Origin: Escherichia coli O157:H7
GTDB lineage: Bacteria; Pseudomonadota; Gammaproteobacteria; Enterobacterales; Enterobacteriaceae
Assembly: GCF_013167455.1 (NCBI RefSeq)
Contig: NZ_CP038328.1
Direction: 5' to 3' (one strand)
DNA: 64,000 bases
The notes under the pieces are model-generated. The model saw only the letters and a program-made list of their open reading frames with translations, was not told the DNA's origin and did not search any database. Positions 5,193 through 64,000 of this stretch are shown piece by piece; the first letter of the stretch is position 1; the number at the start of each line of letters is the position of its first letter. A program made the position numbers and the translations under genes.

Positions 5193-7675
5193 AACTCAGT
5201 CGTCGTAGCTTTATGAAAGCTAACGCCGTTGCGGCCGCTGCGGCGGCTGCCGGTCTCAGCGTGCCGGGCGTTGCCCGCGCCGTTGTTGGTCAGCAGGAAG
5301 CCATTAAATGGGATAAAGCGCCGTGCCGTTTCTGCGGTACTGGTTGCGGCGTTCTGGTCGGAACGCAGCAGGGGCGTGTGGTGGCCTGTCAGGGCGACCC
5401 GGACGCACCGGTTAACCGTGGCCTGAACTGCATTAAGGGCTATTTCCTGCCCAAGATCATGTACGGTAAAGACCGTTTGACGCAGCCGCTGCTGCGTATG
5501 AAAAACGGTAAATATGACAAAGAAGGCGAATTTACCCCAATCACCTGGGATCAGGCCTTCGATGTGATGGAAGAGAAATTCAAAACCGCCCTGAAAGAAA
5601 AAGGGCCGGAATCGATCGGTATGTTCGGTTCTGGTCAGTGGACTATCTGGGAAGGTTATGCCGCGTCCAAGCTGTTTAAAGCGGGCTTCCGTTCGAACAA
5701 CATCGACCCGAATGCGCGTCACTGTATGGCGTCGGCAGTAGTTGGCTTTATGCGAACCTTTGGTATGGATGAGCCGATGGGCTGCTATGACGACATCGAG
5801 CAGGCTGACGCGTTTGTGCTGTGGGGCGCAAACATGGCGGAGATGCACCCGATCCTCTGGTCACGCATCACTAACCGTCGTCTCTCTAACCAGGACGTCA
5901 CCGTGGCGGTGCTTTCAACCTACCAGCATCGTAGCTTCGAGCTGGCGGATAACGGCATCATCTTTACGCCGCAATCTGACCTGGTGATCCTGAACTACAT
6001 CGCCAACTATATCATTCAAAACAATGCGATAAATCAGGACTTCTTCAGCAAGCACGTTAACCTGCGCAAAGGGGCGACGGACATCGGCTACGGTTTACGT
6101 CCGACCCATCCGCTGGAAAAAGCAGCGAAGAATCCGGGTTCTGACGCCTCCGAACCGATGAGCTTTGAAGATTACAAAGCCTTCGTTGCTGAGTATACGC
6201 TGGAAAAAACCGCTGAAATGACTGGCGTACCAAAAGATCAGCTGGAACAACTGGCGCAGCTGTATGCCGATCCGAACAAGAAAGTCATCTCCTACTGGAC
6301 GATGGGCTTCAACCAGCATACTCGTGGCGTGTGGGCCAACAACCTGGTCTACAACCTGCACCTGCTGACCGGCAAAATTTCCCAGCCGGGTTGCGGTCCG
6401 TTCTCCCTGACCGGGCAGCCTTCCGCGTGTGGTACTGCGCGTGAAGTGGGCACCTTTGCTCACCGTCTGCCTGCGGACATGGTGGTAACTAACGAGAAAC
6501 ATCGTGATATCTGCGAGAAGAAGTGGAATATCCCGAGCGGCACCATTCCGGCGAAAATCGGTCTGCATGCGGTAGCACAAGACCGTGCGCTGAAAGACGG
6601 CAAGCTGAATGTTTACTGGACCATGTGTACCAACAACATGCAGGCCGGGCCGAACATTAATGAAGAGCGTATGCCGGGCTGGCGCGATCCGCGCAACTTC
6701 ATCATCGTCTCCGATCCGTATCCGACAGTCAGTGCGCTGGCCGCCGACTTGATCCTGCCGACCGCAATGTGGGTAGAAAAAGAGGGGGCTTACGGTAACG
6801 CCGAACGCCGTACTCAGTTCTGGCGTCAGCAGGTACAGGCGCCAGGCGAAGCGAAATCGGACCTCTGGCAGTTAGTCCAGTTCTCCCGCCGCTTCAAAAC
6901 TGAAGAAGTATGGCCGGAAGAGCTGCTGGCGAAGAAACCGGAACTGCGTGGCAAAACGCTGTACGAAGTTCTGTATGCCACCCCCGAAGTGAGCAAATTC
7001 CCGGTATCCGAACTGGCGGAAGATCAGCTGAACGATGAATCCCGCGAGCTGGGCTTCTATCTGCAAAAAGGGCTGTTCGAAGAGTACGCATGGTTTGGTC
7101 GCGGTCACGGTCACGATCTCGCGCCGTTCGATGACTACCACAAAGCGCGCGGTCTGCGCTGGCCGGTGGTGAACGGTAAAGAAACGCAGTGGCGTTACAG
7201 CGAAGGTAACGACCCGTACGTGAAAGCGGGCGAAGGCTATAAGTTCTACGGTAAACCGGATGGTAAAGCGGTGATCTTCGCGCTGCCGTTCGAACCGGCG
7301 GCGGAAGCACCGGATGAAGAGTACGACCTGTGGCTCTCTACCGGACGCGTCCTGGAGCACTGGCACACCGGCAGTATGACTCGCCGTGTGCCGGAACTGC
7401 ACCGTGCCTTCCCGGAAGCGGTCCTGTTTATTCACCCGCTGGATGCGAAAGCGCGCGATCTGCGCCGTGGCGACAAAGTGAAAGTGGTTTCTCGCCGTGG
7501 CGAAGTGATCTCGATTGTCGAAACGCGCGGTCGTAACCGTCCGCCGCAGGGCCTGGTGTACATGCCGTTCTTCGACGCCGCACAGCTGGTTAACAAACTA
7601 ACGCTGGACGCGACCGATCCGCTCTCGAAAGAGACGGACTTCAAGAAGTGCGCGGTCAAACTGGAGAAGGTGTAA
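5189..7675 (+). CDS. napA: Periplasmic nitrate reductase catalytic subunit NapA
   Basis: 828-aa ORF; Tat signal SRRSFMK; molybdopterin oxidoreductase with N-terminal Cys cluster. Confidence 0.95.
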
Positions 7676-40866: not shown

Positions 40867-41960
40867 TAACGTCCCTCAAAATCTATACGCGGATCGACCA
40901 GCGTATAGCTGATATCACTGACAATATTCAGCAGCAGGCCAATCAGGGTGAAAATATACAAGGTACCAAACATTACAGGATAATCGCGCGAGACGGTCGC
41001 TTCGTAGCCCAGTAAGCCAAGACCATTGAGTGAAAACATCACCTCAATCAGCAGCGAGCCGGTAAAAAACATGCTGATAAACGTCGCCGGAAAACCGGCA
41101 ATCACCAGCAGCATGGCGTTGCGGAACACATGTTTCCAGAGAATATTTTTTTCACTTACCCCTTTCGCACGCGCGGTCACCACGTATTGCTTGCGTACTT
41201 CATCAAGGAATGAGTTTTTTGTCAGCATAGTCAGCGCCGCAAAGCCACCAATCACCGTCGCCAGCACCGGCAGCGTGATATGCCACAGATAATCGGTGAT
41301 TTTCTGATACCACGGCAGCGAATCAAAGTTAGCGGAAACCAGGCCGCGTAGAGGGAACAGGTCGAAATAGCTGCCGCCTGCGAAGAAGACAATCAGCAGG
41401 ATGGCAAACAAAAAGGCCGGAATGGCGTAGCCGATGATGATAAATGCGCTACTCCAGACGTCAAAGCGGCTCCCATTATAAACAGCTTTGCGAATGCCTA
41501 ACGGAATCGACACCAGATAGATAATCAGCGTGCTCCACAATCCGAGGGTGATGGAAACCGGCAGACTGTCTTTAATCAGCGTCAGCACCGAGGCGCTGCG
41601 AAACAGGCTATCGCCAAAATCAAAGCGGATGTAGTCCCAGAGCATTTTGAAGTAACGTTCGTGGATCGGCTTATCGAAACCGTAGCGATGAGTGATCTCG
41701 GCGATCACTTCTGGATCTAATCCGCGTCCGCCACGGTAATTACTGTCGCTGATATTACCGACGCCCGTTTGCGCATGGCTGGCGCGAACGCCTTCACCGC
41801 CTGCGCCGGGTAATACTCCGGCATTACCAAACTCAATGGCGGCGATGGCCTGGTCGACCGGACCGCCAGGCGCAATTTGCACGATGAAAAAGTTGATAGT
41901 GATAATCGCCCATAACGTTGGGATCACCAGCAACAGACGGCGAATCAGATAAGCGCCCAT
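40866..41960 (-). CDS. yejB: ABC transporter permease YejB
   Basis: 364-aa membrane protein. Confidence 0.9.
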
Positions 41961-54729: not shown

Positions 54730-56421
54730 ATGAAAACGCTGCTGATTATTGACGCTAATCTCGGTCAGGCACGCGCCTATATGGCGAAGACCCTGCTGGG
54801 CGCGGCGGCGCGAAAAGCAAAACTGGAAATCATCGACAATCCGAACGACGCAGAAATGGCGATTGTTCTCGGTGATTCCATCCCGAATGACAGCGCGCTG
54901 AACGGTAAAAATGTCTGGCTGGGCGATATTTCCCGGGCAGTTGCGCACCCTGAGCTGTTCCTGAGTGAAGCCAAAGGCCATGCGAAACCTTACACTGCGC
55001 CGGTCGCTGCGACAGCACCGGTTGCCGCCAGCGGTCCGAAACGCGTAGTTGCGGTGACTGCTTGCCCGACTGGCGTAGCACACACCTTTATGGCGGCTGA
55101 AGCCATTGAAACCGAAGCGAAAAAACGTGGCTGGTGGGTGAAAGTTGAAACCCGTGGTTCTGTTGGCGCGGGTAATGCAATCACTCCCGAAGAAGTAGCC
55201 GCAGCGGATCTGGTGATTGTGGCGGCAGATATCGAAGTGGATCTGGCGAAATTTGCTGGTAAACCGATGTATCGCACCTCTACCGGTCTGGCGCTGAAGA
55301 AAACCGCGCAGGAACTGGATAAAGCGGTTGCTGAAGCAACGCCGTATGAACCGGCGGGCAAAGCTCAAACGGCGACCTCTGAAGGTAAGAACGAGAGTGC
55401 AGGCGCATACCGTCACTTGCTGACGGGCGTCTCTTACATGCTGCCGATGGTCGTTGCAGGTGGTCTGTGTATCGCGCTTTCTTTTGCTTTTGGTATCGAA
55501 GCGTTTAAAGAGCCGGGTACGTTGGCAGCGGCGCTGATGCAGATTGGTGGTGGTTCAGCCTTTGCGCTGATGGTGCCGGTACTGGCAGGTTATATTGCCT
55601 TCTCCATTGCCGATCGTCCGGGTCTCACGCCGGGTCTGATTGGCGGTATGCTGGCGGTCAGCACCGGTTCTGGCTTCATTGGCGGTATTATTGCGGGCTT
55701 CCTGGCTGGTTACATTGCGAAGTTAATCAGTACGCAACTGAAACTGCCACAGAGTATGGAGGCGCTGAAACCGATCCTGATCATTCCGCTAATTTCCAGT
55801 CTGGTGGTCGGTCTGGCGATGATCTACCTGATCGGTAAACCGGTTGCTGGCATTCTCGAAGGGTTGACTCACTGGCTGCAGACCATGGGGACTGCGAATG
55901 CGGTTCTGCTGGGGGCGATCCTCGGTGGCATGATGTGTACTGACATGGGCGGTCCGGTAAATAAAGCAGCGTACGCATTCGGTGTGGGTCTGCTGAGTAC
56001 TCAAACCTATGGCCCGATGGCGGCGATTATGGCGGCAGGTATGGTGCCACCGCTGGCAATGGGTCTGGCAACAATGGTGGCGCGTCGCAAATTTGACAAA
56101 GCGCAGCAGGAAGGTGGCAAAGCCGCTCTGGTTCTTGGTCTGTGCTTTATTTCGGAAGGTGCAATTCCTTTTGCTGCTCGTGATCCGATGCGTGTGCTGC
56201 CGTGTTGTATCGTTGGTGGGGCGCTGACTGGCGCAATCTCAATGGCGATTGGTGCGAAACTGATGGCACCGCACGGTGGTCTGTTTGTTCTGCTGATCCC
56301 TGGCGCTATTACGCCGGTACTGGGTTACCTGGTAGCAATTATTGCCGGTACGCTGGTGGCGGGTTTGGCCTATGCCTTCCTGAAACGTCCGGAAGTGGAC
56401 GCAGTAGCGAAAGCCGCGTAA
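54730..56421 (+). CDS. fruA: PTS fructose-specific EIIB'BC component FruA
   Basis: 563-aa ORF. Confidence 0.9.
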   Translation: MKTLLIIDANLGQARAYMAKTLLGAAARKAKLEIIDNPNDAEMAIVLGDSIPNDSALNGKNVWLGDISRAVAHPELFLSEAKGHAKPYTAPVAATAPVAASGPKRVVAVTACPTGVAHTFMAAEAIETEAKKRGWWVKVETRGSVGAGNAITPEEVAAADLVIVAADIEVDLAKFAGKPMYRTSTGLALKKTAQELDKAVAEATPYEPAGKAQTATSEGKNESAGAYRHLLTGVSYMLPMVVAGGLCIALSFAFGIEAFKEPGTLAAALMQIGGGSAFALMVPVLAGYIAFSIADRPGLTPGLIGGMLAVSTGSGFIGGIIAGFLAGYIAKLISTQLKLPQSMEALKPILIIPLISSLVVGLAMIYLIGKPVAGILEGLTHWLQTMGTANAVLLGAILGGMMCTDMGGPVNKAAYAFGVGLLSTQTYGPMAAIMAAGMVPPLAMGLATMVARRKFDKAQQEGGKAALVLGLCFISEGAIPFAARDPMRVLPCCIVGGALTGAISMAIGAKLMAPHGGLFVLLIPGAITPVLGYLVAIIAGTLVAGLAYAFLKRPEVDAVAKAA

Positions 56422-56577
56422 TAAAAGGTGTGTTACAGGGCAGAAATTTACTGCCCCGTATCATTGGATGAGCGCAAAGAGAATGACCGGTTTGTGAATG
56501 TAATTTTATGAATTTAAATGGTTTTATCTTTCAGTAGAAACCTGAAACGTTCATCAAACACTAAGGTTATTTCCTCA

Positions 56578-56604
56578 AGGGCAGATTCTTTTCTGCCCTT
56601 TTTT
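56578..56604 (+). terminator. Intrinsic terminator of fruBKA
   Basis: aGGGCAGattcttttCTGCCCtttttt. Confidence 0.75.
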
Positions 56605-56744
56605 AGTGTTCATGTTCTGTGCATCCCGTCACAAATTCCTCGCTTTTGTAATTCAGGCATTTAATCGCATTTTGTGAGCCTGCTCAAATCTGCCCGCTTT
56701 GCCTCTCTGGCGGCAATTTACTTTACGTAAAACATGCATACTAT

Positions 56745-56778
56745 GAGCACATGTTTAAATATGAACACATGTTTAAAC
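56745..56778 (+). promoter_or_regulatory. Tandem 16-bp direct repeats (GAgCACATGTTTAAAt / GAaCACATGTTTAAAc) upstream of psuK
   Basis: Read from sequence; 2-bp gap between copies; each contains palindromic ACATGT. Confidence 0.5.
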
Positions 56779-56844
56779 CGTCTTTGCAGTATCTATATCC
56801 TTGTGGATTGACAGGGTTGGTAATTTTTTACCAGAGGACGTGCT

Positions 56845-57786
56845 ATGCGCGAAAAGGATTATGTCGTAATTATAGGCTCGGCGAATATTGATGTCGCCGG
56901 ATATTCACATGAATCATTAAATTATGCGGATTCAAATCCAGGTAAAATAAAATTTACGCCTGGTGGGGTAGGGCGCAATATTGCACAAAACCTGGCGTTG
57001 CTGGGTAATAAAGCCTGGCTACTGAGCGCCGTAGGCAGTGATTTTTATGGCCAATCGCTGCTAACGCAAACCAATCAATCTGGCGTTTATGTCGATAAAT
57101 GCCTGATTGTGCCGGGAGAAAATACGTCGAGCTATTTATCATTACTCGATAATACCGGTGAAATGCTGGTTGCTATAAATGACATGAATATTAGCAACGC
57201 TATTACAGCTGAATATCTCGCACAGCACCGTGAATTTATTCAGAGGGCAAAGGTCATTGTCGCGGACTGTAATATCAGTGAAGAGGCACTGGCATGGATT
57301 CTGGATAATGCTGCCAACGTACCCGTATTTGTCGATCCGGTTTCCGCGTGGAAATGCGTCAAAGTACGCGAGCGATTAAGTCAAATCCATACTCTCAAGC
57401 CAAACCGCCTTGAAGCGGAAACCCTGAGTGGGATTGCGCTGTCAGGGCGTGAAGATGTGGCAAAAGTTGCTGCCTGGTTCCATCAACATGGCCTGAACCG
57501 ACTGGTATTGAGCATGGGCGGCGACGGCGTTTATTACAGCGATATCAGCGGTGAAAGTGGCTGGTCTGCGCCGATCAAAACCAATGTTATTAATGTTACC
57601 GGAGCGGGCGATGCCATGATGGCGGGACTTGCTTCGTGTTGGGTAGACGGAATGCCGTTTGCCGAATCTGTTCGTTTCGCACAGGGATGTTCGTCAATGG
57701 CGCTCTCCTGTGAATACACCAATAACCCCGATTTATCGATTGCCAACGTTATATCGTTAGTGGAGAACGCAGAATGTCTGAATTAA
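56845..57786 (+). CDS. psuK: Pseudouridine kinase PsuK (YeiC)
   Basis: 313-aa PfkB-family kinase. Confidence 0.85.
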   Translation: MREKDYVVIIGSANIDVAGYSHESLNYADSNPGKIKFTPGGVGRNIAQNLALLGNKAWLLSAVGSDFYGQSLLTQTNQSGVYVDKCLIVPGENTSSYLSLLDNTGEMLVAINDMNISNAITAEYLAQHREFIQRAKVIVADCNISEEALAWILDNAANVPVFVDPVSAWKCVKVRERLSQIHTLKPNRLEAETLSGIALSGREDVAKVAAWFHQHGLNRLVLSMGGDGVYYSDISGESGWSAPIKTNVINVTGAGDAMMAGLASCWVDGMPFAESVRFAQGCSSMALSCEYTNNPDLSIANVISLVENAECLN

Positions 57787-58712
57787 AAATTTCCCCTGAA
57801 TTATTACAAATTTCCCCGGAAGTGCAGGACGCTTTAAAAAACAAAAAACCGGTTGTGGCGCTGGAATCGACCATTATTTCTCACGGGATGCCGTTCCCAC
57901 AAAATGCCCAGACCGCAATTGAAGTAGAAGAAACTATTCGTAAACAGGGCGCAGTACCTGCCACTATCGCCATTATTGGCGGCGTGATGAAAGTGGGTTT
58001 AAGCAAAGAAGAAATTGAATTACTGGGTCGTGAAGGGCATAACGTGACTAAAGTTAGTCGTCGCGATTTACCTTTTGTCGTTGCCGCAGGAAAAAATGGT
58101 GCAACCACCGTGGCTTCAACGATGATTATTGCGGCGCTTGCCGGAATTAAAGTATTTGCCACCGGCGGAATTGGTGGTGTTCATCGAGGGGCGGAACATA
58201 CCTTCGATATTTCTGCCGATTTGCAAGAACTGGCAAATACTAATGTCACCGTTGTTTGTGCCGGGGCGAAATCTATTCTCGATTTAGGATTAACCACTGA
58301 GTATTTAGAAACCTTCGGTGTGCCGTTAATTGGCTATCAGACTAAAGCGCTACCTGCGTTTTTCTGCCGTACCAGCCCGTTTGACGTCAGCATTCGTCTC
58401 GACAGCGCCAGTGAAATTGCCCGTGCAATGGCGGTGAAATGGCAAAGCGGGCTGAACGGTGGCCTCGTGGTAGCGAACCCGATCCCGGAACAGTTTGCGA
58501 TGCCAGAACACACTATCAATGCGGTGATCGATCAGGCGGTAGCTGAAGCTGAAGCGCAGGGTGTTATTGGTAAAGAAAGTACGCCATTCCTGCTGGCGCG
58601 CGTTGCTGAGCTGACCGGCGGTGACAGCCTGAAATCCAACATCCAGCTTGTGTTCAACAACGCCATTCTGGCGAGCGAAATTGCCAAAGAATATCAGCGT
58701 CTCGCGGGTTAA
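57774..58712 (+). CDS. psuG: Pseudouridine-5'-phosphate glycosidase PsuG (YeiN)
   Basis: 312-aa ORF overlapping psuK end. Confidence 0.85.
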   Translation: MSELKISPELLQISPEVQDALKNKKPVVALESTIISHGMPFPQNAQTAIEVEETIRKQGAVPATIAIIGGVMKVGLSKEEIELLGREGHNVTKVSRRDLPFVVAAGKNGATTVASTMIIAALAGIKVFATGGIGGVHRGAEHTFDISADLQELANTNVTVVCAGAKSILDLGLTTEYLETFGVPLIGYQTKALPAFFCRTSPFDVSIRLDSASEIARAMAVKWQSGLNGGLVVANPIPEQFAMPEHTINAVIDQAVAEAEAQGVIGKESTPFLLARVAELTGGDSLKSNIQLVFNNAILASEIAKEYQRLAG

Positions 58713-58805
58713 TTTCTGACGGGCAGAAAGCCGTCGCCCGTACTCATCAAACATACCGAAACCTGGCGCTGACGCCGGGTTTACTGGCATGAAGGGAAAA
58801 TCATT

Positions 58806-60056
58806 ATGGACATAATGAGAAGTGTTGTGGGGATGGTGGTGTTACTGGCAATAGCATTTCTGTTGTCAGTGAATAAAAAGAGCATCAGTTTGCGTACGGT
58901 TGCAGCCGCACTACTGCTGCAAATTGCTCTTGGTGGCATCATGCTCTATTTTCCGCCGGGAAAGTGGGCTGTAGAACAGGCGGCATTAGGCGTTCATAAA
59001 GTGATGTCTTACAGTGATGCTGGTAGCGCCTTCATTTTTGGTTCGCTGGTCGGGCCGAAAATGGATGTCCTCTTTGACGGTGCGGGTTTTATCTTCGCCT
59101 TTCGCGTACTTCCGGCGATTATCTTCGTCACTGCGCTCATTAGTCTGCTGTACTACATTGGCGTGATGGGGCTGCTGATTCGCATCCTTGGCAGCATTTT
59201 CCAGAAAGCCCTCAACATCAGCAAAATCGAATCTTTTGTCGCAGTCACCACTATTTTCCTCGGGCAAAATGAGATCCCGGCGATCGTTAAACCGTTTATC
59301 GATCGCATGAATCGAAACGAGTTGTTTACGGCTATTTGTAGCGGGATGGCGTCCATTGCTGGTTCGATGATGATTGGTTATGCCGGAATGGGCGTACCAA
59401 TTGACTACCTGTTGGCGGCATCGCTGATGGCGATCCCCGGCGGTATTTTGTTTGCACGTATTCTTAGTCCAGCAACCGAGCTTTCGCAGGTCACGTTTGA
59501 AAATCTGTCGTTCAGCGAAACGCCGCCAAAAAGCTTTATCGAAGCAGCGGCGAGCGGTGCGATGACCGGGCTGAAAATCGCCGCTGGTGTGGCGACGGTG
59601 GTAATGGCATTTGTGGCAATTATTGCGCTGATCAACGGCATTATCGGCGGAATTGGCGGCTGGTTTGGCTTCGCCAATGCTTCTCTGGAAAGTATTTTTG
59701 GCTATGTGCTGGCACCGCTGGCGTGGATCATGGGTGTGGACTGGAGTGATGCCAACCTTGCGGGTAGCCTGATTGGGCAGAAACTGGCGATTAACGAATT
59801 CGTCGCTTACCTGAGTTTCTCCCCATACCTGCAAACGGGCGGCACGCTGGAAGTGAAAACCATTGCGATTATCTCCTTTGCGCTTTGTGGTTTTGCTAAC
59901 TTTGGTTCTATCGGTGTTGTCGTTGGGGCATTTTCGGCTATTTCGCCAAAACGCGCACCGGAAATCGCTCAGCTTGGTTTACGGGCGCTGGCAGCAGCAA
60001 CGCTTTCCAACCTGATGAGCGCGACCATTGCCGGGTTCTTTATTGGTCTGGCGTAA
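58806..60056 (+). CDS. psuT: NupC-family nucleoside transporter PsuT (YeiM)
   Basis: 416-aa membrane protein, paralog of nupX. Confidence 0.85.
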   Translation: MDIMRSVVGMVVLLAIAFLLSVNKKSISLRTVAAALLLQIALGGIMLYFPPGKWAVEQAALGVHKVMSYSDAGSAFIFGSLVGPKMDVLFDGAGFIFAFRVLPAIIFVTALISLLYYIGVMGLLIRILGSIFQKALNISKIESFVAVTTIFLGQNEIPAIVKPFIDRMNRNELFTAICSGMASIAGSMMIGYAGMGVPIDYLLAASLMAIPGGILFARILSPATELSQVTFENLSFSETPPKSFIEAAASGAMTGLKIAAGVATVVMAFVAIIALINGIIGGIGGWFGFANASLESIFGYVLAPLAWIMGVDWSDANLAGSLIGQKLAINEFVAYLSFSPYLQTGGTLEVKTIAIISFALCGFANFGSIGVVVGAFSAISPKRAPEIAQLGLRALAAATLSNLMSATIAGFFIGLA

Positions 60057-60126: not shown

Positions 60127-60786
60127 TTACTGCATCATCCCGGAGAATTTATTCTCCGGGTCCATCTCCAGTGCCAGCCCTGACAACTGCTTTCTGTTTT
60201 TAATTAGATATCCTTTCTTGCTTTTAATTAATAAACCGTCGTGAATGAATTGCGCGAGAACATATAAAAGATGTCGATAAGAAACGCCTAAATACTCTGC
60301 CGCTTGCGTATGCTTTTCGTGATAAAGATCACCTTCTTGTGAGAGTAATATAAATGCTGCCAGGCGATTCACTAACGGAAATGATTGATTCTGAGTTAAA
60401 GAAACAATATTACGATAATTTTTATGACTTAAGGTGACGCAAAGTTTTCGTAAAAATAGGGTGTCGTTTAATAACAGCGGACGGTAATGTTTCATAGGGA
60501 GCGCAAGGCACCAACACTCTTCAATAGCCTGTACCGCACGCGGTTCATGGTCTTTATCGATTAACTCAATCTCACCAATAAAACAGGGGGCGGCAAAGAA
60601 ATCGATCAGCGACACGCGACCATTAGCTAGCGTGGCGTAAAGCCTGGCGCGGCCTCGCGTCAGGTAAAACAGCCAGGACGGCTGTTGCCCTTCCTGCACA
60701 ATGTAGTCACGCGCTAAAAAATGAAACAGCCGCGTATCGGCTGAAACATCCGTTAAAAAGCAATCCTTAAACGCGGATTCACTCAT
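60127..60786 (-). CDS. yeiL: Crp/Fnr-family transcriptional regulator YeiL
   Basis: ~219 aa from [10 protein letters not shown]; cNMP-binding-like domain plus C-terminal HTH. Confidence 0.8.
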
Positions 60787-60954
60787 CAATTGCTGCTTAA
60801 GATCATTATTGTGGATTTCTTTCACGATGTTTATCCGCTATGAGATTTCTCATATTTAGCATACGTACGCTGTTGTTAAGATTCAATCATCGGCCCGATC
60901 GAAATTTCTTTGCTGTAGAAAAAATAACGCAACTGGAAACAGAGGAAATAAACA

Positions 60955-61896
60955 ATGGAAAAGAGAAAAATTATTCTGGATTGTGATCCGGGTCATGATG
61001 ATGCTATTGCTATAATGATGGCGGCGAAACATCCGGCAATAGATTTATTAGGCATCACTATTGTAGCGGGTAATCAGACGCTTGATAAAACATTAATTAA
61101 TGGCCTGAATGTTTGCCAGAAACTGGAGATTAATGTTCCGGTTTATGCGGGGATGCCACAACCCATTATGCGGCAACAAATCGTTGCCGATAATATTCAC
61201 GGTGATACCGGACTGGATGGCCCGGTATTCGAGCCGCTGACCCGCCAGGCAGAAAGCACTCATGCGGTGAAATACATCATTGATACCCTGATGGCAAGCG
61301 ATGGCGATATCACTCTGGTGCCGGTTGGTCCGCTTTCAAATATCGCGGTGGCAATGCGTATGCAACCCGCGATCCTGCCCAAAATCCGTGAAATTGTGCT
61401 AATGGGCGGCGCTTACGGTACAGGCAACTTCACGCCATCTGCCGAGTTCAACATCTTTGCTGACCCGGAAGCCGCACGCGTGGTGTTCACCTCTGGCGTT
61501 CCATTAGTGATGATGGGCCTCGATCTCACCAACCAGACCGTTTGCACCCCGGACGTGATTGCACGAATGGAAAGGGCAGGCGGCCCTGCCGGAGAGCTGT
61601 TCAGCGACATCATGAACTTCACTCTCAAAACCCAGTTCGAAAACTACGGCCTGGCTGGCGGCCCGGTGCACGACGCCACCTGCATCGGTTATCTGATTAA
61701 CCCTGATGGCATTAAAACCCAGGAGATGTACGTCGAAGTGGACGTCAACAGTGGCCCTTGTTATGGGCGTACCGTCTGCGACGAGCTGGGCGTTCTTGGC
61801 AAGCCCGCTAATACCAAAGTCGGCATCACTATTGATAGCGACTGGTTCTGGGGCTTAGTCGAAGAGTGCGTGCGCGGCTACATCAAAACCCATTAA
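60955..61896 (+). CDS. rihB: Pyrimidine-specific ribonucleoside hydrolase RihB (YeiK)
   Basis: 313-aa ORF; N-terminal DCDPGHDD motif. Confidence 0.9.
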
Positions 61897-61995
61897 GTGT
61901 TGATAACAAGCCGGGCCGGTATCGCAAGATGCAGGCCTGGCTATTTCTGATGGGCAGAAAGCCGTCGCCCAATATGACATGAAGAGATAATCACT

Positions 61996-63246
61996 ATGGA
62001 TGTCATGAGAAGTGTTCTGGGAATGGTGGTATTGCTGACGATTGCGTTTTTACTGTCAGTAAACAAGAAGAAGATCAGCCTGCGTACCGTTGGCGCGGCG
62101 TTAGTGTTACAGGTCGTGATTGGCGGCATTATGCTTTGGTTACCGCCAGGGCGTTGGGTCGCTGAAAAAGTCGCTTTTGGTGTGCATAAAGTGATGGCGT
62201 ACAGCGACGCGGGTAGCGCATTTATCTTCGGTTCTCTGGTCGGACCGAAAATGGACACCTTATTTGATGGCGCAGGATTTATCTTTGGTTTCAGGGTATT
62301 ACCGGCAATTATCTTCGTCACTGCACTGGTGAGTATTCTCTACTACATCGGTGTGATGGGGATTTTAATTCGCATTCTCGGCGGTATATTCCAGAAAGCA
62401 TTAAATATCAGCAAGATTGAGTCATTCGTCGCGGTCACTACCATTTTCCTCGGGCAAAACGAAATTCCGGCGATTGTGAAGCCCTTTATCGATCGGCTGA
62501 ATCGCAATGAATTATTTACAGCGATTTGTAGCGGCATGGCCTCGATTGCTGGTTCGACAATGATTGGTTATGCCGCACTGGGCGTGCCTGTGGAATATTT
62601 GCTGGCGGCATCGTTAATGGCGATCCCCGGGGGGATCTTGTTTGCCCGCCTGCTAAGCCCGGCTACGGAATCTTCGCAGGTTTCTTTTAATAACCTCTCT
62701 TTCACCGAAACACCGCCAAAAAGCATTATTGAAGCCGCCGCGACAGGGGCAATGACCGGGCTGAAAATCGCCGCAGGTGTGGCGACAGTAGTGATGGCAT
62801 TCGTCGCCATCATTGCGTTAATTAACGGTATTATCGGCGGCGTTGGCGGCTGGTTTGGTTTTGAACATGCCTCGCTGGAGTCCATTGTAGGTTATCTGCT
62901 GGCCCCACTGGCGTGGGTAATGGGTGTTGACTGGAGTGATGCGAATCTTGCCGGGAGTTTGATTGGACAGAAACTGGCAATAAATGAATTTGTCGCTTAT
63001 CTCAATTTCTCACCCTATCTGCAAACGGCTGGCACTCTGGATGCTAAAACCGTGGCGATTATTTCCTTCGCGTTGTGCGGTTTCGCTAACTTTGGTTCTA
63101 TCGGGGTGGTGGTGGGGGCGTTTTCTGCGGTTGCGCCACACCGTGCGCCGGAAATCGCCCAGCTTGGTTTACGCGCGCTGGCGGCGGCGACACTTTCTAA
63201 CCTGATGAGTGCCACCATTGCCGGGTTCTTTATTGGTTTAGCGTAG
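61996..63246 (+). CDS. nupX: NupC-family nucleoside permease NupX (YeiJ)
   Basis: 416-aa ORF, highly similar to psuT. Confidence 0.85.
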   Translation: MDVMRSVLGMVVLLTIAFLLSVNKKKISLRTVGAALVLQVVIGGIMLWLPPGRWVAEKVAFGVHKVMAYSDAGSAFIFGSLVGPKMDTLFDGAGFIFGFRVLPAIIFVTALVSILYYIGVMGILIRILGGIFQKALNISKIESFVAVTTIFLGQNEIPAIVKPFIDRLNRNELFTAICSGMASIAGSTMIGYAALGVPVEYLLAASLMAIPGGILFARLLSPATESSQVSFNNLSFTETPPKSIIEAAATGAMTGLKIAAGVATVVMAFVAIIALINGIIGGVGGWFGFEHASLESIVGYLLAPLAWVMGVDWSDANLAGSLIGQKLAINEFVAYLNFSPYLQTAGTLDAKTVAIISFALCGFANFGSIGVVVGAFSAVAPHRAPEIAQLGLRALAAATLSNLMSATIAGFFIGLA

Positions 63247-63301: not shown

Positions 63302-64000
63302 TTACACCATTGGCACTAATGAAAGCGCGTTATCGGCAGACAGGGTAGGGTTGTTTAAGCTGCCGCTGGCGCGTGAAATTGCCGCGCAGGCCATCGCAAA
63401 ACGGGCGCTGTCACGGAAATTGTTTCCTTCCAGAAAGCTATATACCAGGCCCGCCATAAAACCATCGTCAGCACCAAAACTGTCTACTGTCGTATGCGCT
63501 GGTGCGGTCAGCAAAAATTGTTCTCCATCCTTTTCGCTGCAATAAACTGACTCATCGGGCAAATAAACAAACAGTTGCTGAACACCTTGCTGATGCAACG
63601 CATTCACTGCAGCATTACGGTCAGCATCGCTGGTGATCGCCTGTCCCCATAAAATTTCCAGCTCCGGTAAAGTGGGTTTCAGGGTGTGAATATGCGCCAG
63701 CCAGTGTTTGATTTTGCCCGCTTTGAATTCTGAAACGGTATCGACAAACACCGGGATCTCACCAGCGAGGGTAAAGACCCATTCCAGCGCCTCGGCTGTC
63801 AGGTTGCAATCAGCCAGTACCACGCCCGCATGACGAAGTAAATCGCGCGACCCGTTCAATAATTGCGGCGATAACTGTTCCAGCAGATGGGTATCGTTAA
63901 TCGCCAGCACGGTTTCATCGTCTCGATTGGCAATTGCCAGATACGTCGATGTGCTTTGACCATGTAAACGAACGCAGCCGGAGACATTCACGCCGGCGCG
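63302..64000 (-). CDS. yeiI: PfkB-family sugar kinase YeiI, 3' portion (5' end beyond window)
   Basis: Open frame continues to window end; paralog of psuK. Confidence 0.8.
   Translation of the reverse strand, partial: RAGVNVSGCVRLHGQSTSTYLAIANRDDETVLAINDTHLLEQLSPQLLNGSRDLLRHAGVVLADCNLTAEALEWVFTLAGEIPVFVDTVSEFKAGKIKHWLAHIHTLKPTLPELEILWGQAITSDADRNAAVNALHQQGVQQLFVYLPDESVYCSEKDGEQFLLTAPAHTTVDSFGADDGFMAGLVYSFLEGNNFRDSARFAMACAAISRASGSLNNPTLSADNALSLVPMV

Follow-up and report, generated by a model that had tools for sequence, protein, structure and literature searches.

The tandem repeat in front of psuK in Escherichia coli O157:H7 probably represents two palindromic operators seated on the start of the psuKGT operon, and on balance the winged-helix protein YeiI appears to be the repressor that would act on them, with repression relieved by pseudouridine or its phosphate. 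The element would be of an ordinary kind, an operator, and its candidate regulator is an unstudied one. The window analyzed here is a stretch of 64,000 nucleotides (contig NZ_CP038328.1, assembly GCF_013167455.1) in which the genes run in the order fruB, fruK, fruA (ending at 56421), psuK, psuG, psuT, yeiL, rihB, nupX, and yeiI. yeiL and yeiI lie on the minus strand, and the window holds only the 3′ part of yeiI, which extends past its edge. The intergenic region 56422-56860 is 100% identical to that of E. coli O157:H7 genomes, and the intrinsic terminator of fruA sets the upstream limit of the psuK control region.

A first-pass annotation of this DNA had described two 16-mers at 56745-56778, separated by a 2-bp spacer and lying about 70-100 bp upstream of psuK. 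Both 16-mers are present at these coordinates, and the distance agrees as well, the repeat lying 68-103 bp from the psuK ATG (56845). The direct repeat is real but larger than claimed, an 18-bp head-to-tail tandem, and because the 18-bp units abut directly, the bases taken for a spacer belong to the unit. TATGAGCACATGTTTAAA and TATGAACACATGTTTAAA are identical at 17 of 18 positions. Tandem Repeats Finder reports, for 56742-56777, a period of 18, 2.0 copies, 94% matches, and a score of 65. When up to three mismatches are allowed, the 18-mer occurs in the 64 kb at these two sites only (0.09 sites expected from shuffles), and by our own arithmetic an adjacent 17/18 repeat would be expected by chance about 5e-5 times per 64 kb. 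The repeat is identical in K-12 MG1655.

Table 1. Features of the psuKGT control region and its surroundings, in window coordinates
Feature	Position	Strand	Evidence and remarks
fruA intrinsic terminator	56577..56600	+	9-pair GC-rich stem followed by a T run
CRP-like site TGTGAgcctgcTCAAA	56673..56688		At about -70.5 from the predicted start, a class I position; assigned from resemblance to the consensus
-35 hexamer TTTACT	56717..56722	+	Conserved in the enteric alignment; base 56719 is the adaptive T>G site
-10 hexamer TACTAT	56739..56744	+	Predicted; conserved as TAyyAT/TACAGT in enterics; 16-nt spacer to the -35
Repeat unit 1	56742..56759	+	TATGAGCACATGTTTAAA; repeat search and Tandem Repeats Finder
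Box 1 GAGCACATGTTT	56745..56756		Palindromic candidate operator; conserved in all genera; ranks third in the 64 kb by matrix score (16.6)
Repeat unit 2	56760..56777	+	TATGAACACATGTTTAAA; repeat search and Tandem Repeats Finder
Box 2 GAACACATGTTT	56763..56774		Palindromic candidate operator, 18 bp from box 1; conserved in all genera; matrix score 18.1, best in the window
Hairpin TGGTAA-TTTT-TTACCA	56818..56833	+	Directly 5′ of the psuK Shine-Dalgarno; compensatory changes across genera
psuK	56845-57786	+	NCBIfam equivalog match for PsuK
psuG	57774-58712	+	Named psuG in RefSeq genomes
psuT	58806-60056	+	NupC-family match
psuKGT operon	56845..60056	+	Taken as controlled by the repeat region
yeiI, 3′ part	63302..64000	-	PfkB domain in the window; RefSeq name yeiI; full-length orthologues carry HTH_24 and PfkB

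The promoter assignment is supported by an adaptive SNP within the -35 hexamer, discussed below, and the last three bases of the -10 hexamer TACTAT are the first three of repeat unit 1. Transcription is predicted to start at about 56750-56753, some 7 nt past the -10 and underneath box 1, so that the E. coli boxes would span roughly -6 to +24, a classical position for a repressor and not for an activator. Box 1 directly follows the -10 hexamer in E. coli, Citrobacter, and Salmonella. The site does not sit 5′ of the promoter but on the predicted -10 and transcription-start region, and this placement points to repression. In the CRP-like site farther upstream, which has the form TGTGA-N6-TCA[A/T]A, the TGTGA and TCA.A elements are invariant among the 13 enteric sequences aligned; no entry for the psuK locus was found among the entries listed in the portion of the Footprint-seq CRP list consulted. 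A literature search found no EMSA, footprint, or ChIP data for the psuK promoter.

Phylogenetic footprinting supports the earlier suggestion that the element is a regulator-binding site for the pseudouridine operon. A PsuK-based scan with one genome per species covered four Escherichia, four Citrobacter, two Buttiauxella, and one MAG, and the 245 bases 5′ of psuK were aligned for 13 enteric sequences. Four blocks are conserved amid diverging sequence, namely the CRP-like site, the -35, the -10, and two boxes 18 bp apart, and both boxes hold the same promoter-relative position in all 13 sequences. The unit kept in all of them is an imperfect 12-bp palindrome, GA[A/G]CA-YR-TG[T/C]T[T/C], present twice per promoter, and it replaces the 16-bp direct repeat as the candidate functional unit. 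Comparison of Escherichia, Citrobacter, Buttiauxella, Enterobacter, Salmonella, Affinibrenneria, Aliivibrio, Aquitalea, and one Clostridial genome gives the consensus rAACA-N2-TGyTy, the spacing between boxes being 18-19 bp. Within the box the AACA/TGTT arms are kept and the central YR varies; the ACATGT core emphasized by the first-pass annotation is indeed found in both E. coli copies, but other genera conserve its two central bases less than any other part of the site. In sequences from outside the main E. coli lineage, only 12-13 of 18 positions match between the two 18-mers; the boxes read GAACATGTGTTT / GAACATGTGCTC in Citrobacter braakii and GAACATGTGTTT / GAACATATGTTC in Escherichia albertii. 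As for conservation in other species, which had been named as a check on the binding-site reading, the boxes are kept across the enterics and the same motif lies 5′ of psu operons in distant taxa.

Within the 64-kb window no other intergenic match to the box was seen, the yeiL, rihB, and nupX promoters included. One further, exact copy of box 2, GAACACATGTTT at 41124-41135, falls inside a 364-aa minus-strand ORF (40866-41960) that, judging from its position, is probably the ABC-transporter permease gene yejB; this copy was treated as chance because no second box lies 18-19 bp away. The sites of several known regulators (ArgR, RutR, KdgR, CytR, TyrR, and GntR) were compared from their familiar consensus sequences and set aside, as their arms or spacing do not match, and a reading of the intergenic region 56422-56844 revealed no LexA/SOS box of the form CTGT-N8-ACAG.

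The motif was then challenged in independent loci. A symmetrised 12-bp matrix, built from the Escherichia, Citrobacter, and Buttiauxella boxes only, was applied to nine loci of 7-15 kb retrieved via homologues of a protein in which a winged helix is joined to a PfkB domain (wHTH-PfkB). The best single match of the whole locus falls within the 300 bases 5′ of the first psu gene in six of them (Aquitalea, Aliivibrio, Enterobacter, Salmonella, Affinibrenneria, and Faecousia) and ranks 2-3 in the remaining three, while the best two-box match (gap 18-19) lies in the psu upstream region in 7/9 loci, in most cases with a clear lead (for example, 24.4 vs 7.5 and 23.9 vs 6.2). Since this region makes up about 2-4% of each locus, such placement is far beyond chance. 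The most distant case is a Faecousia sp. MAG, from a Clostridial Firmicute, where, at 860-900 of that locus, AAACATATGCTT comes immediately after a perfect sigma-70 promoter sequence, TTGACA-17-TATAAT, 5′ of a wHTH-PfkB-psuG operon, with a weaker box 19 bp upstream of AAACATATGCTT and within the -35/-10 spacer; the geometry of a box following the -10 is common to Faecousia and E. coli. The two-box model fails in Xenorhabdus, where a single perfect 14-bp palindrome, CATGTTcaAACATG, with the half-sites in the opposite order, lies just downstream of a promoter-like TTTACT-N17-TAAAAA. The matrix scan showed no box 5′ of yeiI where yeiI has its own promoter.

Gene content was examined in 12 loci from outside Escherichia, and in each of them a wHTH-PfkB gene adjoins or heads the psu cluster; across phyla, no other DNA-binding function in the loci examined goes along with the motif. 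A search with PsuG yielded only close enteric relatives. In Citrobacter, Buttiauxella, Enterobacter, Salmonella, and Affinibrenneria, yeiI lies directly after psuT in convergent orientation and encodes a protein of 362-364 aa with an N-terminal winged helix (Pfam HTH_24, HTH_11, and MarR_2) and a PfkB kinase domain; in Salmonella and Affinibrenneria, psuKGT and yeiI stay together although the genes around them are unrelated. A separate psuK is missing from Xenorhabdus, Aquitalea, Aliivibrio, Faecousia, and two metagenomic proteobacteria, and in these the wHTH-PfkB gene comes first in the operon, followed by psuG. In E. coli, yeiI is 3.2 kb from psuT. yeiL, rihB, and nupX (60127-63246) separate the two genes only in Escherichia, and because yeiI directly follows psuT in other enteric genera, these three genes look like an insertion into an older psuKGT-yeiI cluster.

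The kinase domain of YeiI carries features that would suit a sensor. Among solved structures, the wHTH-PfkB protein is most closely related to E. coli PsuK, and none of those found includes the winged helix. A protein alignment shows that S30, N143, and K170 (PsuK numbering) are invariant in PsuK, YeiI, and the fused kinases; these residues have roles in pseudouridine binding and affinity and in the substrate-induced closure or conformational switch (PMC9061257). In enteric YeiI the PfkB motif GAGD has become GADD/GADE and KPNRLE has become KPTQKE, whereas the single-copy fused kinases retain both the GAGD and the KPNRLE (NxxE) motifs. This pattern fits a duplication in which a bifunctional kinase-repressor would have given rise to the enzyme PsuK and the sensor YeiI. 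We found no literature on the function of YeiI, which is called uncharacterised or a hypothetical transcription factor, nor any that links a pseudouridine kinase to a helix-turn-helix or describes a psuKGT regulator.

Among E. coli strains, the repeat-type promoter is found in about 4,228 of 5,426 complete genomes, leaving about 1,200 without it. psuG is present in 5,402 and yeiI in 5,422 E. coli genomes, and nearly all of those that lack the repeat-type promoter retain both, so that the notion of psuK being absent from some 1,200 genomes is wrong. The one such genome examined, that of strain PAR, has a divergent allele (5690-5961) with an albertii-like promoter, TATGAACATGTGTTTAAA TCTGAACACGTGCTCTAA, in which there are two boxes and no exact direct repeat, the units being 13/18 alike; the sequence 3′ of box 2 is still homologous between the alleles. 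Given the two unlike boxes of the PAR allele, the near-perfect 18-bp identity is best read as a lineage-specific homogenisation of box 2 towards box 1. Copy number was searched with synthetic one-copy and three-copy queries. Two units are present in about 99% of 4,227 repeat-type E. coli genomes; strain UC4224 has one, strains 210205630 and VCSW5 have three (both confirmed by alignment), and at least six more records with a one-piece match of 251-253 bases are three-copy candidates. The homogenised array is mildly unstable, being prone to gain or loss of a unit. We also observed that nupX is truncated in strain PAR and that the yeiI matches form two classes by identity, one of 2,060 genomes lying at 80-90%.

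The psuK promoter has also been a target of selection in the laboratory. An A>C change at NC_000913.2 2257444, between psuK and fruA, is recurrent in several evolution studies and rises repeatedly in the mouse gut (PMC7518454, PMC9509342, PMC6731689, PMC10340439), and an A>C “psuKp” allele, which may or may not be base 2257444, appeared in three long-term stationary-phase populations (PMC7858067). With an offset of +1978 from NC_000913.2 to NC_000913.3, checked on the reported srlR L25S change, 2257444 maps to window position 56719, where T>G on the psuK strand (A>C on the K-12 plus strand) converts the -35 from TTTACT to TTGACT. The SNP is predicted to give a better -35 to the psuK promoter, 23 bp upstream of the repeat. 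In the portions of the mouse-gut evolution work covered here, the authors assign the SNP to the psuK promoter and describe altered growth, Supplementary Data 7 flags the psuK/fruA target as not an adaptive loss, and many repressor knock-outs served to open other catabolic operons in these experiments; no yeiI or yeiL mutations appear among the gut-adaptive changes in that portion of the supplement. That the psuK operon was altered via one promoter SNP and not via yeiI knock-outs counts against a simple repressor, and for the SNP to fit a repressor model, the gut would already have to contain pseudouridine and promoter strength would have to be limiting. PsuG and PsuK are in addition among the most reduced proteins in recA mutants under ciprofloxacin, with log2 fold changes to -6, beside SOS proteins (PMC11039860); this RecA effect may be indirect, for example through pseudouridine freed by RNA breakdown or lysis.

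The mRNA leader contains a hairpin of its own, just before psuK, whose stem varies as GGTAA/TTACC, as GGCAA/TTGCC in Citrobacter, Buttiauxella, and Enterobacter, and as GGCAT/ATGCC in Salmonella, with a G-U intermediate in E. albertii; control of translation or stability is a possible role. A sigma-54 reading of the TGGCAA-N-TTGCC element near the Shine-Dalgarno was rejected, as only 3 Citrobacter sequences have the correct spacing and the covariation of the element is that of a hairpin.

The boxes themselves might work at the RNA level, the 3′ half of box 1 pairing with the 5′ half of box 2 so that the psuK transcript carries a hairpin at its 5′ end, one that affects stability, translation, or access of the sRNA RprA. 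RNAalifold predicts a 10-pair inter-box hairpin in nine genera, folding of the E. coli leader is more favorable than that of shuffled sequences (z = -2.95), and contacts between RprA and psuK have been reported by RIL-seq and TRIC-seq (bioRxiv 10.1101/2025.09.11.675593). We nevertheless give this explanation little credence. Two neighboring palindromes that share their arms will always produce such a hairpin; conservation is just as strong in the outer half-sites, which the hairpin leaves unused; its two central pairs show no covariation, being mismatched in 2-3 of 9 sequences and only G-U wobbles in 3-4 of 9, E. coli having a 2x2 mismatch; and the second Faecousia box, between the -35 and the -10, would escape transcription. 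Moreover, Rfam returned for the leader only four sub-threshold chance matches, none of them on the repeat, and an RprA-leader duplex computed with RNAduplex was equalled by 56 of 300 shuffles. Still less probable, in our judgment, is that slippage produced the 18-bp repeat as a neutral duplication that itself has no function. Its exact identity is confined to one Escherichia lineage, the copies range from 1 to 3 among strains, and the units of the albertii-like PAR allele are no more than 13/18 alike, all of which a slippage origin would accommodate; the two boxes, however, are older than the homogenisation and are conserved at fixed geometry across genera and even phyla, and nearly all repeat-type genomes keep two copies. 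Neutrality survives only as the narrow claim that the perfect identity of the units, unlike the boxes, is not itself selected.

If the boxes are a real operator, the bound protein might be something other than YeiI, either YeiL, of the CRP/FNR family, or an unlinked factor. The position of yeiL directly downstream of psuT in E. coli speaks for this, as does the lack of yeiI mutations in the covered part of the gut supplement, and the papers found name no targets for YeiL. We regard it as unlikely, since Citrobacter, Buttiauxella, Enterobacter, Salmonella, Affinibrenneria, Aliivibrio, Aquitalea, and Faecousia have the boxes and no yeiL-like gene beside the operon, and a wHTH-PfkB gene is present in all of them. 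The 5-N2-5 layout of the box is also unlike the 5-N4-5 or 5-N6-5 layouts known for FNR/CRP-type sites. Two features of the DNA do count against the YeiI model: the half-site centers are only 7 bp apart, and a box spacing of 18-19 bp corresponds to a non-integral number of helical turns. Both are unusual for winged-helix dimers and misfit a simple same-face model.

Taken with these reservations, the model in which YeiI represses psuKGT can be set out as follows. The pair of palindromic operators, with centers 18 bp apart, would begin right after the -10 and cover the start, and a dimeric winged-helix protein on each box would block RNA polymerase. Binding of pseudouridine or its 5′-phosphate in the PfkB domain would release the repressor and turn the operon on, while the CRP-like site at about -70 would add catabolite control. 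In most bacteria the regulator would be the pseudouridine kinase itself, equipped with an N-terminal winged helix. In the Enterobacteriaceae the gene would have been duplicated, yielding PsuK, an enzyme with no DNA-binding domain, and YeiI, which has kept the DNA-binding domain, has altered catalytic motifs, and is the proposed repressor. The near-perfect identity of the units in most E. coli would stem from recent homogenisation of two older, unlike boxes.

In its widest form, which to us stands about evenly between being right and being wrong, the proposal is that wHTH-PfkB proteins are uncharacterised, kinase-derived one-component regulators that sense pseudouridine, a modified nucleoside freed by RNA turnover, and repress psu operons via paired boxes from Clostridia to Proteobacteria, that an enteric duplication split a bifunctional ancestor into PsuK and a degenerate YeiI, and that one-, two-, and three-box alleles together with the -35 SNP tune escape from repression. 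Few targets of adaptation recur as reliably as the psuKGT promoter during mouse-gut colonisation by E. coli, and an SNP in the -35 beside a conserved two-box candidate operator offers a concrete model of what selection acts on. The orphan YeiI and the widespread wHTH-PfkB architecture would gain a testable function as a pseudouridine-responsive repressor; the box motif could be used for annotating psu regulons; and the natural one-, two-, and three-operator alleles are ready-made experimental variants. Strains engineered for pseudouridine production, the subject of several papers, could benefit as well.

The proposed switch shares elements with several known systems. The ARG boxes of ArgR are 18-bp imperfect palindromes 3 bp apart (a 21-bp period) with TGAAT/ATTCA arms; the psuK site resembles them in having two adjacent palindromes that overlap the promoter, but its period is 18 bp and its arms are AACA/TGTT. 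The “Cheo box” of Gram-positive LexA is GAAC-N4-GTTC, in contrast to the CTGT-N8-ACAG of E. coli LexA, and the psuK box, which reads GAAC-N4-GTTy, is similar to it. The RecA dependence of PsuG and PsuK levels (PMC11039860) extends this likeness; unlike a LexA site, the psuK-box motif tracks psu genes and not SOS genes.

Closer parallels are found among regulators built from enzymes. BirA, acting on bioO, and NadR are bifunctional enzyme-repressor proteins. Like BirA, the wHTH-PfkB protein would place an N-terminal winged helix on a pathway enzyme and use a palindromic operator on the promoter, and YeiI matches the BirA-type Pfam family HTH_11; BirA, however, uses its product as corepressor and one 40-bp operator, whereas psuK has two 12-bp boxes and inducer logic would be expected. 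The ROK repressors NagC and Mlc join a helix-turn-helix to a sugar-kinase fold that senses the ligand, and active kinase paralogues with no DNA-binding domain coexist with them. The wHTH-PfkB system is comparable in its kinase-fold sensor, in the active-type paralogue without a DNA-binding domain in the same genome, and in candidate operators that overlap a catabolic promoter. It differs in that the fold is PfkB/ribokinase instead of ROK/ASKHA and the ligand would be a modified nucleoside, and in that the fused wHTH-PfkB protein, with GAGD and NxxE kept, still looks like the only kinase of the pathway in most taxa.
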